A DNA stretch of 64,000 bases, taken from NCBI RefSeq assembly GCF_013122565.1, contig NZ_CP053258.1, one strand, 5' to 3'. This document shows, piece after piece, positions 35,062-41,508 of this stretch. Source of the stretch: Escherichia coli (GTDB taxonomy: Bacteria; Pseudomonadota; Gammaproteobacteria; Enterobacterales; Enterobacteriaceae). Under the pieces are notes generated by a model, which ran no database searches, had not been told where the DNA came from, and saw nothing but the letters and a program-made list of their open reading frames with translations. The first letter of the stretch is position 1; the number at the start of each line of letters is the position of its first letter. A program made the position numbers and the translations under genes.

Positions 35062-36003
35062 ATGCGCGAAAAGGATTATGTCGTAATTATAGGTTCGGCG
35101 AATATTGATGTCGCCGGATATTCACATGAATCATTAAATTATGCGGATTCAAATCCAGGTAAAATAAAATTTACGCCTGGTGGAGTCGGGCGCAATATTG
35201 CACAAAACCTGGCGTTGCTGGGGAATAAAGCCTGGCTACTTAGCGCAGTAGGCAGTGATTTTTATGGTCAATCGTTGCTAACGCAAACCAATCAATCTGG
35301 TGTTTATGTCGATAAATGCCTGATTGTGCCGGGAGAAAATACGTCGAGCTATTTATCATTACTCGATAATACCGGTGAAATGCTGGTTGCTATAAATGAC
35401 ATGAATATTAGCAACGCTATTACAGCTGAATATCTCGCACAGCACCGTGAATTTATTCAGAGGGCAAAGGTCATTGTCGCGGACTGTAATATCAGTGAAG
35501 AGGCACTGGCATGGATTCTGGATAATGCCGCCAACGTACCCGTATTTGTCGATCCTGTTTCCGCGTGGAAATGTGTCAAAGTGCGCGACCGTCTAAATCA
35601 GATCCACACTCTCAAACCAAACCGCCTTGAAGCGGAAACCCTGAGTGGGATTGCGCTGTCAGGGCGTGCAGATGTGGCAAAAGTTGCTGCCTGGTTCCAT
35701 CAACATGGCCTGAACCGACTGGTATTGAGCATGGGCGGCGACGGCGTTTATTACAGCGATATCAGCGGTGAAAGTGGCTGGTCTGCGCCGATCAAAACCA
35801 ATGTCATTAATGTTACCGGAGCGGGCGATGCCATGATGGCGGGGCTTGCTTCGTGTTGGGTAGACGGAATGCCGTTTGCCGAATCTGTTCGTTTCGCACA
35901 GGGATGTTCGTCAATGGCGCTCTCCTGTGAATACACCAATAACCCCGATTTATCGATTGCCAACGTTATATCGTTAGTGGAGAACGCAGAATGTCTGAAT
36001 TAA
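35062..36003 (+). CDS. psuK: Pseudouridine kinase (PfkB family)
   Basis: 313-aa ribokinase-like ORF (…TGAGDAMMAGL…); overlaps psuG by 13 nt. Confidence 0.85.
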   Translation: MREKDYVVIIGSANIDVAGYSHESLNYADSNPGKIKFTPGGVGRNIAQNLALLGNKAWLLSAVGSDFYGQSLLTQTNQSGVYVDKCLIVPGENTSSYLSLLDNTGEMLVAINDMNISNAITAEYLAQHREFIQRAKVIVADCNISEEALAWILDNAANVPVFVDPVSAWKCVKVRDRLNQIHTLKPNRLEAETLSGIALSGRADVAKVAAWFHQHGLNRLVLSMGGDGVYYSDISGESGWSAPIKTNVINVTGAGDAMMAGLASCWVDGMPFAESVRFAQGCSSMALSCEYTNNPDLSIANVISLVENAECLN

Positions 36004-36929
36004 AAATTTCCCCTGAATTATTACAAATTTCCCCGGAAGTGCAGGACGCTTTAAAAAACAAAAAACCGGTTGTGGCGCTGGAATCGACCATTATTTCTCA
36101 CGGGATGCCGTTCCCACAAAATGCCCAGACCGCAATTGAAGTTGAAGAAACTATTCGTAAACAGGGCGCAGTACCTGCCACTATCGCCATTATTGGTGGC
36201 GTGATGAAAGTGGGTTTAAGCAAAGAAGAAATTGAATTACTGGGTCGTGAAGGGCATAACGTGACTAAAGTTAGTCGTCGCGATTTACCTTTTGTCGTTG
36301 CCGCCGGAAAAAATGGCGCAACCACCGTGGCTTCAACGATGATTATTGCGGCGCTTGCCGGAATTAAAGTATTTGCCACCGGCGGAATTGGTGGTGTTCA
36401 TCGCGGGGCGGAACATACCTTCGATATTTCTGCCGATTTGCAAGAACTGGCAAATACTAATGTCACCGTTGTTTGTGCCGGGGCGAAATCTATTCTCGAT
36501 TTAGGCTTAACTACCGAATATTTAGAAACTTTCGGTGTACCGCTAATTGGCTATCAGACCAAAGCGTTGCCTGCGTTTTTCTGCCGCACCAGCCCGTTTG
36601 ACGTCAGCATTCGTCTCGACAGCGCCAGTGAAATTGCCCGTGCAATGGCGGTGAAATGGCAAAGCGGGCTGAACGGTGGCCTCGTGGTAGCGAACCCGAT
36701 CCCGGAACAGTTTGCGATGCCGGAACAGACCATTAACGCTGCGATTGATCAGGCAGTGGCAGAAGCCGAAGAACAGGGAGTCATTGGTAAAGAAAGTACG
36801 CCATTCCTGCTGGCGCGCGTTGCTGAGCTGACCGGCGGTGACAGCCTGAAATCCAACATCCAGCTGGTGTTCAACAACGCCATTCTGGCGAGCGAAATTG
36901 CCAAAGAATATCAGCGTCTCGCGGGTTAA
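35991..36929 (+). CDS. psuG: Pseudouridine-5'-phosphate glycosidase
   Basis: 312-aa ORF of the IndA/PsuG family; conserved position. Confidence 0.85.
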   Translation: MSELKISPELLQISPEVQDALKNKKPVVALESTIISHGMPFPQNAQTAIEVEETIRKQGAVPATIAIIGGVMKVGLSKEEIELLGREGHNVTKVSRRDLPFVVAAGKNGATTVASTMIIAALAGIKVFATGGIGGVHRGAEHTFDISADLQELANTNVTVVCAGAKSILDLGLTTEYLETFGVPLIGYQTKALPAFFCRTSPFDVSIRLDSASEIARAMAVKWQSGLNGGLVVANPIPEQFAMPEQTINAAIDQAVAEAEEQGVIGKESTPFLLARVAELTGGDSLKSNIQLVFNNAILASEIAKEYQRLAG

Positions 36930-37022
36930 TTTCTGACGGGCAGAAAGCCGTCGCCCGTACTCATCAAGCATACCAAAACCTGGCGCTGACGCCGGGTTTA
37001 CTGGCATGAAGGGAAAATCATT

Positions 37023-38273
37023 ATGGATATAATGAGAAGTGTTGTGGGGATGGTGGTGTTACTGGCAATAGCATTTCTGTTGTCAGTGAATAAAAAGAGC
37101 ATCAGTTTGCGCACGGTTGGAGCCGCACTGCTGCTGCAAATCGCTATTGGTGGCATCATGCTCTACTTCCCACCGGGAAAATGGGCAGTAGAACAGGCGG
37201 CATTAGGCGTTCATAAAGTGATGTCTTACAGTGATGCCGGTAGCGCCTTTATTTTTGGTTCGCTGGTTGGGCCGAAAATGGATGTCCTGTTTGACGGTGC
37301 GGGTTTTATCTTCGCCTTTCGCGTACTTCCGGCGATTATCTTCGTCACTGCGCTCATTAGTCTGCTGTACTACATTGGCGTGATGGGGCTGCTGATTCGC
37401 ATCCTTGGCAGCATTTTCCAGAAAGCCCTCAACATCAGCAAAATCGAATCTTTTGTCGCAGTCACCACTATTTTCCTCGGGCAAAATGAGATCCCGGCGA
37501 TCGTTAAACCGTTTATCGATCGCATGAATCGCAACGAGTTGTTTACCGCAATTTGTAGCGGGATGGCGTCCATTGCTGGTTCGATGATGATTGGTTATGC
37601 CGGAATGGGCGTACCAATTGACTACCTGTTAGCGGCATCGCTGATGGCGATCCCCGGCGGTATTTTGTTTGCACGTATTCTTAGCCCGGCAACCGAGCCT
37701 TCGCAGGTCACATTTGAAAATCTGTCGTTCAGCGAAACGCCGCCAAAAAGCTTTATCGAAGCGGCGGCGAGCGGTGCGATGACCGGGCTGAAAATCGCCG
37801 CTGGTGTGGCGACGGTGGTCATGGCGTTTGTCGCAATTATTGCGCTGATCAACGGCATTATCGGCGGAATTGGCGGCTGGTTTGGTTTTGCCAATGCCTC
37901 TCTGGAAAGTATTTTTGGCTATGTGCTGGCACCGCTGGCGTGGATCATGGGTGTGGACTGGAGTGATGCCAATCTTGCGGGTAGCCTGATTGGGCAGAAA
38001 CTGGCGATTAACGAATTCGTCGCTTACCTGAGTTTCTCCCCATACCTGCAAACGGGCGGCACGCTGGAAGTGAAAACCATTGCGATTATCTCCTTTGCGC
38101 TTTGTGGTTTTGCTAACTTTGGTTCTATCGGTGTTGTCGTTGGCGCATTTTCGGCTATTTCGCCAAAACGTGCTCCGGAAATCGCTCAGCTTGGTTTACG
38201 GGCGCTGGCAGCAGCAACGCTTTCCAACCTGATGAGCGCGACTATTGCCGGGTTCTTTATTGGTTTAGCTTGA
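37023..38273 (+). CDS. psuT: NupC-family (CNT) nucleoside transporter PsuT (YeiM)
   Basis: 416-aa polytopic membrane protein; about 90% identical to the nupX product in this window. Confidence 0.85.
   Translation: MDIMRSVVGMVVLLAIAFLLSVNKKSISLRTVGAALLLQIAIGGIMLYFPPGKWAVEQAALGVHKVMSYSDAGSAFIFGSLVGPKMDVLFDGAGFIFAFRVLPAIIFVTALISLLYYIGVMGLLIRILGSIFQKALNISKIESFVAVTTIFLGQNEIPAIVKPFIDRMNRNELFTAICSGMASIAGSMMIGYAGMGVPIDYLLAASLMAIPGGILFARILSPATEPSQVTFENLSFSETPPKSFIEAAASGAMTGLKIAAGVATVVMAFVAIIALINGIIGGIGGWFGFANASLESIFGYVLAPLAWIMGVDWSDANLAGSLIGQKLAINEFVAYLSFSPYLQTGGTLEVKTIAIISFALCGFANFGSIGVVVGAFSAISPKRAPEIAQLGLRALAAATLSNLMSATIAGFFIGLA
37023..38273 (+). repeat. Dispersed duplication, copy A (psuT coding region; leader motif at 36933-36956)
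   Basis: Near-identical at the protein level (about 90%) to copy B, with shared 5'-leader motifs. Confidence 0.7.
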
Positions 38274-38281
38274 GTTTTATT

Positions 38282-38317
38282 GCCGGATGTACTCGCTTAT
38301 TAAGCGTTGCATCCGGC
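38282..38317. repeat. REP (repetitive extragenic palindromic) element
   Basis: GCCGGATG…CATCCGGC palindrome typical of E. coli REP units, between psuT and yeiL. Confidence 0.6.
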
Positions 38318-38340
38318 AATCGCACTATTGCAAATAATAT

Positions 38341-39000
38341 TTACTGCATCATCCCGGAGAATTTATTCTCCGGGTCCATCTCCAGCGCCAGTCCTGACAA
38401 CTGCTTTCTGTTTTTAATTAGATATCCTTTCTTGCTTTTAATTAATAAACCGTCGTGAATGAATTGTGCGAGAACATATAAAAGATGTCGATAAGAAACG
38501 CCTAAATACTCTGCCGCTTGCGTATGCTTTTCGTGATAAAGATCACCTTCTTGTGAGAGTAATATAAATGCTGCCAGGCGATTCACTAACGGAAATGATT
38601 GATTCTGAGTTAAAGAAACAATATTACGATAATTTTTATGACTTAAGGTGACGCAAAGTTTTCGTAAAAATAGGGTGTCGTTTAATAACAGCGGACGGTA
38701 ATGTTTCATAGGGAGCGCAAGGCACCAACACTCTTCAATAGCCTGTACCGCACGCGGTTCATGGTCTTTATCGATTAACTCAATCTCACCAATAAAACAG
38801 GGGGCGGCAAAGAAATCGATCAGCGACACGCGACCATTAGCTAGCGTGGCGTAAAGCCTGGCGCGGCCTCGCGTCAGGTAAAACAGCCAGGACGGCTGTT
38901 GCCCTTCCTGCACAATGTAGTCACGCGCTAAAAAATGAAACAGCCGCGTATCGGCTGAAACATCCGTTAAAAAGCAATCCTTAAACGCGGATTCACTCAT
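38341..39000 (-). CDS. yeiL: CRP/FNR-family transcriptional regulator YeiL
   Basis: cNMP-binding-like domain plus C-terminal HTH; start trimmed to [10 protein letters not shown]… (219 aa). Confidence 0.8.
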
Positions 39001-39168
39001 CAATTGCTGCTTAAGATCATTATTGTGGATTTCTTTCACGATGTTTATCCGCTATGAGATTTCTCATATTTAGCATACGTACGCTGTTGTTAAGATTCAA
39101 TCATCGGCCCGATCGAAATTTCTTTGCTGTAGAAAAAATAACGCAACTGGAAACAGAGGAAATAAACA

Positions 39169-40110
39169 ATGGAAAAGAGAAAAATTATTCTGGATTGTGA
39201 TCCGGGTCATGATGATGCTATTGCTATAATGATGGCGGCGAAACATCCGGCAATAGATTTATTAGGCATCACTATTGTAGCGGGTAATCAGACGCTTGAT
39301 AAAACATTAATTAATGGCCTGAATGTTTGCCAGAAACTGGAGATTAATGTTCCGGTTTATGCGGGGATGCCACAACCCATTATGCGGCAACAAATCGTTG
39401 CCGATAATATTCACGGTGATACCGGACTGGATGGCCCGGTATTCGAGCCGCTGACCCGCCAGGCAGAAAGCACTCATGCGGTGAAATACATCATTGATAC
39501 CCTGATGGCAAGCGATGGCGATATCACTCTGGTGCCGGTTGGTCCGCTTTCAAATATCGCGGTGGCAATGCGTATGCAACCCGCGATCCTGCCCAAAATC
39601 CGTGAAATTGTGCTAATGGGCGGCGCTTACGGTACAGGCAACTTCACGCCATCTGCCGAGTTCAACATCTTTGCTGACCCGGAAGCCGCACGCGTGGTGT
39701 TCACCTCCGGCGTTCCATTAGTGATGATGGGCCTCGATCTTACCAACCAGACCGTTTGCACCCCGGACGTGATTGCACGAATGGAAAGGGCAGGCGGCCC
39801 TGCCGGAGAGCTGTTCAGCGACATCATGAACTTCACTCTCAAAACCCAGTTCGAAAACTACGGCCTGGCTGGCGGCCCGGTGCACGACGCCACCTGCATC
39901 GGTTATCTGATTAACCCTGATGGCATTAAAACCCAGGAGATGTACGTCGAAGTGGACGTCAACAGTGGCCCTTGCTATGGGCGTACCGTCTGCGACGAGC
40001 TGGGCGTTCTTGGCAAGCCCGCTAATACCAAAGTCGGCATCACTATTGATACCGACTGGTTCTGGGGCTTAGTCGAAGAGTGCGTGCGCGGCTACATCAA
40101 AACCCATTAA
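39169..40110 (+). CDS. rihB: Pyrimidine-specific ribonucleoside hydrolase RihB (YeiK)
   Basis: 313-aa ORF with N-terminal DxDxxxDD nucleoside-hydrolase motif (DCDPGHDDA). Confidence 0.9.
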
Positions 40111-40209
40111 GTGTTGATAACAAGCCGGGTCAGTATCGCAAGATGCAGGCCCGGCTATTTCTGAGGGGCAGAAAGCCGTCGCCCAATATGACATGAAGAG
40201 ATAATCACT

Positions 40210-41460
40210 ATGGATGTCATGAGAAGTGTTCTGGGAATGGTGGTATTGCTGACGATTGCGTTTTTACTGTCAGTAAACAAGAAGAAGATCAGCCTGCGTA
40301 CCGTTGGCGCGGCGTTAGTGTTACAGGTCGTGATTGGCGGCATTATGCTTTGGTTACCGCCAGGGCGTTGGGTCGCTGAAAAAGTCGCTTTTGGCGTGCA
40401 TAAAGTGATGGCGTACAGCGACGCGGGTAGCGCATTTATCTTCGGTTCTCTGGTCGGACCGAAAATGGACACCTTATTTGATGGCGCAGGATTTATCTTT
40501 GGTTTCAGGGTGTTACCGGCAATTATCTTCGTCACCGCGCTGGTGAGTATTCTCTACTACATCGGTGTGATGGGGATCTTAATTCGCATTCTCGGCGGTA
40601 TCTTCCAGAAAGCATTAAATATCAGCAAGATCGAGTCATTCGTCGCGGTCACTACCATTTTCCTCGGGCAAAACGAAATTCCGGCGATCGTCAAACCCTT
40701 TATCGATCGTCTGAATCGCAATGAATTATTTACAGCGATTTGTAGTGGCATGGCCTCGATTGCTGGTTCGACAATGATTGGTTACGCCGCGCTGGGCGTG
40801 CCTGTGGAATATCTGCTGGCGGCATCATTAATGGCGATCCCTGGCGGGATCTTGTTTGCCCGCCTGTTAAGCCCGGCAACGGAATCTTCGCAGGTTTCCT
40901 TTAATAACCTCTCTTTCACCGAAACACCGCCAAAAAGCATTATTGAAGCCGCTGCGACAGGGGCAATGACCGGGCTGAAAATCGCCGCAGGTGTGGCGAC
41001 AGTAGTGATGGCATTTGTCGCCATCATTGCGTTAATTAACGGTATTATCGGCGGCGTTGGCGGCTGGTTTGATTTTGAACATGCCTCGCTGGAATCCATT
41101 TTAGGTTACCTGCTGGCCCTACTGGCGTGGGTGATGGGTGTTGACTGGAGTGATGCGAATCTTGCCGGGAGTTTGATTGGTCAGAAACTGGCAATAAATG
41201 AATTTGTCGCTTATCTCAATTTCTCACCCTATCTGCAAACAGCTGGCACTCTCGATGTTAAAACTGTGGCGATTATTTCCTTCGCGTTGTGCGGTTTCGC
41301 TAACTTTGGTTCTATCGGGGTAGTGGTGGGGGCGTTTTCTGCGGTTGCGCCACACCGCGCGCCGGAAATCGCCCAGCTTGGTTTACGTGCGCTGGCGGCG
41401 GCGACACTTTCTAACCTGATGAGCGCTACCATTGCCGGATTCTTTATTGGTTTAGCGTAG
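40210..41460 (+). CDS. nupX: NupC-family (CNT) nucleoside transporter NupX (YeiJ)
   Basis: 416-aa paralog of psuT (about 90% aa identity by eye). Confidence 0.85.
   Translation: MDVMRSVLGMVVLLTIAFLLSVNKKKISLRTVGAALVLQVVIGGIMLWLPPGRWVAEKVAFGVHKVMAYSDAGSAFIFGSLVGPKMDTLFDGAGFIFGFRVLPAIIFVTALVSILYYIGVMGILIRILGGIFQKALNISKIESFVAVTTIFLGQNEIPAIVKPFIDRLNRNELFTAICSGMASIAGSTMIGYAALGVPVEYLLAASLMAIPGGILFARLLSPATESSQVSFNNLSFTETPPKSIIEAAATGAMTGLKIAAGVATVVMAFVAIIALINGIIGGVGGWFDFEHASLESILGYLLALLAWVMGVDWSDANLAGSLIGQKLAINEFVAYLNFSPYLQTAGTLDVKTVAIISFALCGFANFGSIGVVVGAFSAVAPHRAPEIAQLGLRALAAATLSNLMSATIAGFFIGLA
40210..41460 (+). repeat. Dispersed duplication, copy B (nupX coding region; leader motif at 40161-40184)
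   Basis: Paralogous to copy A; shared leader motif ctgaSgggcagaaagccgtcgccc and a conserved ribosome-binding region. Confidence 0.7.
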
Positions 41461-41474
41461 CGCGCAATTTATGA

Positions 41475-41508
41475 GCCGGATAAGATGCGGTCAAGCGTCG
41501 AATCCGGC
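41475..41508. repeat. REP-like palindromic element
   Basis: GCCGGATAAG…AATCCGGC palindrome between nupX and yeiI. Confidence 0.5.

Follow-up and report, generated by a model that had tools for sequence, protein, structure and literature searches.

A covarying RNA hairpin in the leaders of the paralogous nucleoside transporter genes psuT and nupX of Escherichia coli and related genera

A conserved hairpin upstream of psuT and nupX

The leaders of the paralogous transporter genes psuT and nupX share a short hairpin, here termed H1, which comparison across genera shows to be a selected sense-strand RNA structure that is autonomous in its position and inherited with the transporter gene. In the window, the 64-kb stretch of E. 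coli DNA analysed in this study, the psuT copy, A-CGGGC-AGAAAGCCGUC-GCCCG-U, occupies 36936..36958 on the plus strand (21-nt core at 36937-36957), and the nupX copy, G-GGGC-AGAAAGCCGUC-GCCC-A, lies on the same strand at 40165..40185. H1 consists of a GC stem of 5-6 bp that encloses a loop or internal loop of 11 nt. Its predicted stability ranges from -7 to -14 kcal/mol across leaders, with -10 kcal/mol for the psuT copy, and the psuT and nupX copies score 37.6 and 30.5 bits, respectively, with model R1.

The gene order in this region of the E. coli chromosome is psuK-psuG-psuT, yeiL, rihB-nupX, with psuK (35062-36003), psuG (35991-36929), psuT (37023-38273), rihB (39169-40110) and nupX (40210-41460) on the plus strand and yeiL (38341-39039) on the minus strand; psuK and psuG overlap by 13 nt (35991-36003). 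psuT and nupX both encode CNT-family nucleoside transporters of 416 aa and are paralogues, with 88% identity at the protein and 78% at the DNA level and 44% identity at four-fold degenerate sites (n=190), and H1 sits within the polycistronic psuK-psuG-psuT and rihB-nupX transcripts. REP-type hairpins follow both transporter genes (38279-38320, -26.3 kcal/mol, 3' of psuT; 41475-41508, -21.9 kcal/mol, 3' of nupX), so that the duplicated unit spans the region from H1 to the 3' REP hairpin. The two genes are among the least understood transporter genes of E. coli: the substrate of PsuT has been inferred solely from operon membership, and both psuT and nupX are close to silent under laboratory conditions (PMC11241209). 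An RpoS-holoenzyme SELEX peak has been mapped within psuG, close to its 5' end and ~800 bp from H1 (PMC5493296). Published 3'-end maps contain no entries for psuT, psuG or rihB and, for nupX, an antisense site only. An element that has been under selection before both genes, across genera and with either upstream gene, offers a concrete handle on their control.

The initial annotation of this region had pointed to a nearly identical 24-nt motif in the two leaders, each copy followed by a conserved ribosome-binding region. Both copies were found in place, and the identity extends 5 nt further in the 5' direction, giving a block of 28 nt, ATTTCTGA[C/G]GGGCAGAAAGCCGTCGCCC, with 27/28 matches between 36929-36956 and 40157-40184. 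From the 44% baseline at four-fold sites, the probability of a 27/28 identity arising by chance is calculated to be ~4e-9. Within the 64-kb window, no further matches with up to three mismatches were detected beyond these two copies, and a search of 100 shuffles for the 24-nt motif returned none. The 5' flank of H1, ATTTCTGA, lies on the plus strand at 36929..36936, beginning on the final base of the psuG stop codon, and at 40157..40164 in the nupX leader; it is the same in both E. coli copies (8/8) and is not kept in other genera. The one C/G difference between the copies, at 40165, is strain-specific and represents a minority allele. K-12 and most other E. coli strains have T (U in the RNA) at position 1 of the nupX H1, which pairs with the A on the 3' side, whereas the G of the present strain faces 40185 in a G·A mismatch; a 35-nt query containing this G allele matches 446 of 5,430 records at 99% identity or more.

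The 24-nt motif corresponds to the core of a 21-nt hairpin, YGGGC-AGnnnGCnGUC-GCCCR. Leaders were collected independently of the motif, by a protein-guided scan of reference genomes and from contigs of other genera that encode ten related proteins, with a metagenome scan using the conserved start-codon region as a third source. The resulting set covers Escherichia, Citrobacter, Salmonella, Klebsiella, Kluyvera, Leclercia, Buttiauxella, Superficieibacter, Dryocola and Entomohabitans, together with metagenomic relatives. A 21-nt element in the H1 register is present in all 59 of the 59 distinct psuT- and nupX-type leaders, and its core is always 21 nt long. H1 precedes genes of both types in at least ten genera, with either psuG or rihB upstream, which bears out the proposal of a cis element that moved with the transporter gene, and orthologous leaders conserve the motif. 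Its surroundings vary: the psuG stop codon lies 7-10 nt and the rihB stop codon 39-64 nt 5' of H1, and the distance from H1 to the start codon ranges from 24 to 67 nt. In all cases, H1 is the 5'-most conserved element of the leader. The sole exception is the psuT leader of Entomohabitans, in which an unrelated perfect 13-bp hairpin takes the place of H1; this leader falls outside the 59-leader set because its start region deviates from the search pattern.

The distribution of H1 is narrow. More distant CNT genes from Serratia, Hafnia, Vibrio, Pasteurellaceae, Burkholderia and other groups lack it, and a search of the window and 90 loci with model R1, distant CNT genes included, found no additional copies. 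As determined by BLAST, H1 occurs at a median of two places per genome (5,424 of 5,426 E. coli genomes), and the search for the motif elsewhere yielded no further places in E. coli. The psuT-like genes of Serratia and Hafnia (73% identity) are instead preceded, ~70-110 nt 5' of the start codon, by an inverted repeat of their own, CCUGAAAGG...CCUUUCAGG, which is conserved except for its variable interior (loci L006-L009, about 2880-2950).

Covariation and selection in H1

H1 is the sole consensus helix that RNAalifold returned for 20 full leaders, so that the gggc…gccc stem noticed initially is real and, moreover, co-varies. Among 31 distinct H1 sequences, 92% of the cells are paired, and four of the seven pairs show changes on both sides: the closing pair changes from C-G to U-A, pair 2 from G-C to A-U, the flanking pair from A-U to G-C and the inner pair from G-C to A-U. 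These compensations are seen in several independent lineages. Stem pairs 3-5 are nearly invariant, and the covariation is carried mainly by the outer pairs. None of 500 shuffles reached the covariation score of H1, a control that overstates significance given that the sequences are related. When the 3' partner is slid out of register, pairing drops to 33-52%. The feature by which structured RNAs are generally recognised, a helix with compensatory base changes across genera, is therefore found in H1.

The one-sided changes in the core pairs indicate which molecule is under selection. They comprise five G·U and one A·C combination as read on the sense strand, an excess that points to a sense-strand RNA rather than to double-stranded DNA or an RNA from the opposite strand. 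This asymmetry bears directly on the earlier suggestion of an operator. On such a reading, the inverted repeat CGGGC-N11-GCCCG would be recognised as double-stranded DNA by a transcription factor such as YeiL, YeiI or CytR. The dyad symmetry would suit such a site, and yeiL adjoins rihB at all nupX loci examined; a DNA site, however, should show both types of mismatch equally. Moreover, the conserved interior bases are asymmetric (AG on the left versus GCnGTC on the right), the site is intra-operonic with no promoter-like match nearby, and psuKGT loci lacking yeiL still have H1. The spacing of the repeat is, presumably, also unlike that of CRP/FNR-type sites. We therefore consider an operator very improbable.

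Selection extends to bases that are unpaired in the H1 stem-loop. When 14 genes were compared pairwise, loop positions 8, 9, 10 and 13 had an identity of 0.40, similar to the 0.46 of four-fold sites, as against 0.82 for the remaining 17 positions. These four loop positions thus look neutral, and 17 of the 21 positions of H1 are constrained. The unpaired bases that are kept are A6 and G7, G11 and C12, and G14, U15 and C16; G11, C12 and G14 are conserved in at least 90% of the 31 distinct sequences and U15 is invariant. An alternative inner register, H1b, would either make G14-U15-C16 a 3' bulge or give rise to a small inner hairpin; it would pair G3-C16, G4·U15, C5-G14, positions 6 and 13, and G7-C12, closing an NNNG tetraloop. 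H1b is paired in 81% of cells, three of its five pairs show double changes, and position 6 co-varies with position 13 wherever it is not A. This pattern lends H1b some support as a structural variant alongside the H1a register, although it leaves the invariance of U15 unexplained. In the nupX leader of Leclercia, the loop signature is gone and a fully paired stem of 8-10 bp is found instead. This leader and the psuT leader of Entomohabitans have both lost the loop identity and kept a plain or even stronger hairpin, suggesting that hairpin formation by itself may be the essential feature.

The similarity of the two E. coli copies goes beyond these constraints. They agree at all four neutral loop positions as well as in the 8-nt flank, for which we calculate a probability of ~7e-5 under the neutral rate, whereas the paralogues of other genera differ at both (for instance, Kluyvera psuT has CAGUCUGCGGUCG and Kluyvera nupX has CAGUGAGCAGUAG). 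Taken to its extreme, this likeness could be read as a non-functional relic of the duplication that gene conversion alone has kept alike in E. coli. Some local homogenisation is indeed likely, but conversion within one genome cannot explain 17 of 21 conserved positions and compensatory changes in at least ten genera that have reached saturation at synonymous sites, so that a mere relic is scarcely credible. Rather, selection on H1 is not enough to account for how nearly identical the E. coli copies are. The 8/8 identity of the flank and the 4/4 identity of the neutral loop positions suggest that a short tract of gene conversion, or else a constraint peculiar to Escherichia, has probably contributed as well. 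One possible constraint of this kind is an alternative pairing, UUUCUG/CAGAAA; as a general structure, this hairpin was rejected, since it is confined to Escherichia and Citrobacter.

Architecture of the surrounding leader

In the ancestral leader, as reconstructed from the leaders compared, H1 was followed by a CA-rich linker, then by a terminator-like hairpin (H2) and finally by a highly conserved ribosome-binding region. The full leader survives 5' of psuT and in nupX leaders of the K. spallanzanii type. In the psuT leader of the window, the G-poor linker, ACUCAUCAAGCAUACCA, extends over 36959..36975 on the plus strand; it is partly conserved as AUCAgaCAUACCAAAA and has been shortened or lost in several lineages, with several psuT lineages among those in which it is shortened. 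H2, AAACCUGGCG-CUGA-CGCCGGGUUU, follows at 36976..36999 (plus strand) and leads into 3-4 U. It has a predicted stability of -15.9 kcal/mol (z -4.85), is 96% paired without double changes, and takes the general form AAACCUGGCG-nnnn-CGCCGGGUUU in psuT leaders and the K. spallanzanii-type nupX leaders. By its predicted fold, H2 looks like a weak intrinsic terminator, although a terminator scan that requires five T in eight positions did not call it. H1 itself has no U tract.

The nupX leader of E. coli has neither linker nor H2; H2 is missing from most nupX leaders, and in many of them it has been lost although H1 persists. A direct repeat, CCUGGC(G) at 36979-36985 and CUGGC(A) at 37001-37006, flanks H2, and judged by these repeats, many nupX leaders look like the products of slippage deletions between CCUGGC copies. 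The length difference between the two E. coli leaders, initially described as an insertion of about 40 nt in psuT, is real (~41 nt), but comparison with the leaders of other genera identifies it as a deletion in E. coli nupX.

The only universal parts of the leaders are H1 and the start region, and comparison of the leaders confirmed that the ribosome-binding regions of psuT and nupX are alike, as had been noted at the outset. On the plus strand, the translation-initiation region of psuT, CUGGCAUGAAGGGAAAAUCAUU AUG GAU AUA AUG AGA AGU, extends over 37001..37040 (SD 37009-37014, AUG 37023) and contains a local hairpin at 37018-37035 (-3.9 kcal/mol); in psuT-type leaders, this weak hairpin, UCAUUAU-GGAU-AUAAUGA, holds the AUG. 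The corresponding region of nupX (40186..40227, plus strand; SD 40196-40201, AUG 40210) begins directly 3' of H1, owing to the deletion of the linker and H2. AUGAGAAG is found in all leaders, but it is part of the pattern by which most of them were collected. Similarly, the start region AUCAUUAUGGAUnUnAUGAGAAGU (37018-37040 and 40205-40227) shows few synonymous-site changes among the 59 leaders, part of it having been fixed by the pattern with which most of them were collected. Two of its codons are rare, namely AUA at codon 3 and AGA at codon 5. There are thus hints of a nucleotide-level constraint on the start region, such as structure or pairing with an sRNA. In the psuT leader of Entomohabitans (L085, 610-712), the predicted fold pairs linker UGAAUAUC with start region GAUAUUCA, and Klebsiella leaders could form a comparable pairing, GAUAUC/GAUAUC.

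Upstream of H1, the nupX leader contains a strong hairpin, H0, 3' of the rihB stop codon (40123..40156, plus strand; -25.1 kcal/mol), which is followed by AUUUCU. Folding was performed for the E. coli copy; on inspection by eye, most nupX-type leaders examined have a hairpin at the same position whose sequence is unrelated. H0 may serve as a weak terminator or 3' stabiliser for rihB.

Neither the consensus fold nor the flank scan nor, for the remainder, inspection by eye revealed any conserved pairing between H1 and other parts of the leader (H2, linker, flanks, start region). A potential antiterminator between H1 and H2 comprises at most 4 bp by eye, is not conserved and is absent from the unconstrained consensus fold, and a scan for pseudoknots between loop and flanks yielded no run of co-varying pairs. 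For the nucleoside-responsive attenuator suggested initially, the psuT leader thus offers a terminator-like hairpin, H2, but no alternative antiterminator pairing was detected, and H2 is gone from many nupX leaders, that of E. coli among them, in which H1 persists. The same results weigh against a small riboswitch, formed by H1 alone or together with the linker and H2, that would sense pseudouridine, uridine or a related metabolite: mutually exclusive pairings are lacking in the consensus fold, as is a pseudoknot partner in the flank scan. In addition, H1 measures merely 21-25 nt, and it persists where the linker and H2 have repeatedly been shortened or lost. The functions of the neighbouring genes in nucleoside uptake and catabolism, the layout of the psuT leader (hairpin, linker, terminator-like hairpin, SD) and the conservation of part of the loop bases would all be in keeping with such a sensor. 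Given that no riboswitch model in Rfam matched, even with lax filters, we nonetheless assign it a very small probability.

In psuT-type leaders, the segment from H1 through the linker to H2 could, alternatively, be released from the psuG 3' UTR as a trans-acting small RNA made up of a 5' hairpin, the single-stranded CA-rich linker as its seed, and a terminator. Its architecture is generically sRNA-like, with a stable H2 that is followed by U residues, and the sole near-matches in Rfam 15, both far below threshold, are the sRNA models isrJ (18.9 bits versus a threshold of 37) and FsrA (14.6 bits). However, nupX leaders without the linker and H2 conserve H1 just as well, the U tail is just 3-4 nt long, the putative seed varies in length, and published 3'-end maps contain no such transcript. 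An sRNA of this kind is therefore quite improbable.

H1 is undescribed in the sources that we searched, although its kind, a conserved leader stem-loop, is familiar. A literature search on the psuT and nupX leaders found nothing, RefSeq carries no annotation at H1, and Rfam 15, including searches of short stretches with lax filters, returned no family at the gathering threshold, all matches being at chance level. Several candidate identities were rejected. A coding function is contradicted by the sole codon-like frame, GGG CAG NNN GCN GUC, which is broken by UAA or UGA at NNN in several taxa, and coding by stop-codon read-through by a frame that is inconsistent among leaders. There is no leader peptide: no ORF with a start codon was found, and the small ORFs and antisense ORFs that do overlap the motif are placed differently in the two copies. 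A SECIS-like reading of the UGA beside H1 fails as this codon is out of frame and not conserved. H1 is not a REP element either, occurring at a median of two places per genome, compared with six for the REP-type hairpin 3' of nupX. A nut site is defined by a 5-bp stem with a GNRA-like pentaloop (boxB) together with a boxA sequence; the loop of H1 has 11 nt (AGnnnGCnGUC) and its linker contains no boxA-like sequence, which sets aside a lambda-type nut site. Likenesses of H1 to ops, metbox, KOPS, matS, LexA and Cra sites, as well as to boxB, the ANTAR motif, tRNA-Thr anticodon loops and the 16S 530 loop, fail on what we take to be the conserved positions of these elements.

Possible roles of H1 and its relation to known systems

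We tentatively favour the idea that H1 is a cis-acting mRNA hairpin that is recognised by a putative factor and tunes transporter output from the polycistronic transcript. In this scenario, H1 would be an autonomous cis-regulatory module whose shape and sequence are read by a trans-acting factor, most likely a protein, allowing the level of the transporter to be set independently of that of the upstream enzymes. In the psuT-type arrangement, H1 could modulate read-through of H2; in all arrangements, it could control the stability or translation of the transporter mRNA segment. This reading is weakened by the fact that psuT and nupX are barely expressed in published maps and that H2, having no long U tract, was missed by the terminator scan. 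A more specific and rather unlikely version of it holds that H1 is the docking hairpin of a post-transcriptional regulator of pyrimidine-nucleoside and pseudouridine uptake in Enterobacteriaceae, with H2 as its ancestral terminator target. This regulator would more likely be an RNA-binding protein than a metabolite.

The main rival, to which we likewise give a fairly low probability, dispenses with any specific factor and assigns H1 a purely structural role, either as a cap that protects the 5' end of the transporter message after endonucleolytic cleavage in the unstructured stretch upstream or as a barrier or insulator between cistrons, whereby the transporter segment would gain a half-life of its own. 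Consistent with this notion, no conserved element lies 5' of H1, and the spacing from H1 to the start codon is free. The stretch directly 5' of it is G-poor and unpaired, located between H0 and H1 in nupX leaders, and the unit as a whole is bracketed by hairpins, with those of the REP type ending both genes. The Leclercia and Entomohabitans hairpins that persist without the loop sequence fit equally well. By contrast, a simple cap needs none of the unpaired bases G11, C12, G14 and U15, which are 90-100% conserved beside neutral loop bases, and the upstream flank shows no consistent RNase E-type motif.

The implications differ between these possibilities. If a specific partner exists, H1 would add a new point at which nucleoside scavenging is controlled through RNA in a very well-studied organism, and if it is a docking hairpin as outlined above, E. 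coli would gain a new class of cis-regulatory RNA. If it is only a structural cap, it illustrates cleanly how a leader module can outlast gene duplication and repeated deletions in the leader. H1 itself is a clean RNA motif with covariation support.

Among the known systems with which H1 may be compared, guanidine-II and preQ1-I are minimal hairpin riboswitches. Like them, H1 is very small, lies in a leader and has conserved loop bases, but it lacks a second partner hairpin, a pseudoknot with an A-rich tail and a match in Rfam. With REP/BIME elements, it shares a GC-rich hairpin in an intergenic region of an enterobacterial operon; REP elements, however, are multi-copy, whereas H1 occurs at a median of two places per genome and differs in sequence. 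The rph-pyrE region contains an intercistronic attenuator of E. coli. The resemblance here lies in a GC-rich hairpin ~7-10 nt past the upstream stop codon in a pyrimidine-related operon. Unlike this attenuator, H1 has no U run, H2 is situated ~40 nt further downstream, beyond the reach of a terminating ribosome, and 39-64 nt separate H1 from the preceding stop codon in nupX leaders.

The 5' hairpin of ompA and the processing of papB-papA exemplify stabilising 5' stem-loops and intercistronic processing, respectively; hairpins of this sort require no particular loop sequence. H1 similarly stands on its own where a segment of the message begins, at a variable distance from the ribosome-binding site, and would permit separate fates for the cistrons of one operon; in contrast to these hairpins, it keeps G11, C12, G14 and U15. 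In the S10 (rpsJ) leader of E. coli, which is regulated by L4, and the nasF leader of Klebsiella, which is regulated by NasR, a recognition hairpin is located just 5' of an intrinsic terminator. The psuT-type leader differs from these systems in that H2 is weak (3-4 U) and dispensable in many lineages and that the element is intercistronic rather than promoter-proximal, and H1 lacks the ANTAR-type hexaloop signature (A at position 1, G at position 4). What the leader shares with them is the order of its parts ahead of the regulated gene: first a hairpin in which certain unpaired bases are specified, then a short linker and then a second hairpin resembling a terminator, in an arrangement that needs no obvious antiterminator helix.
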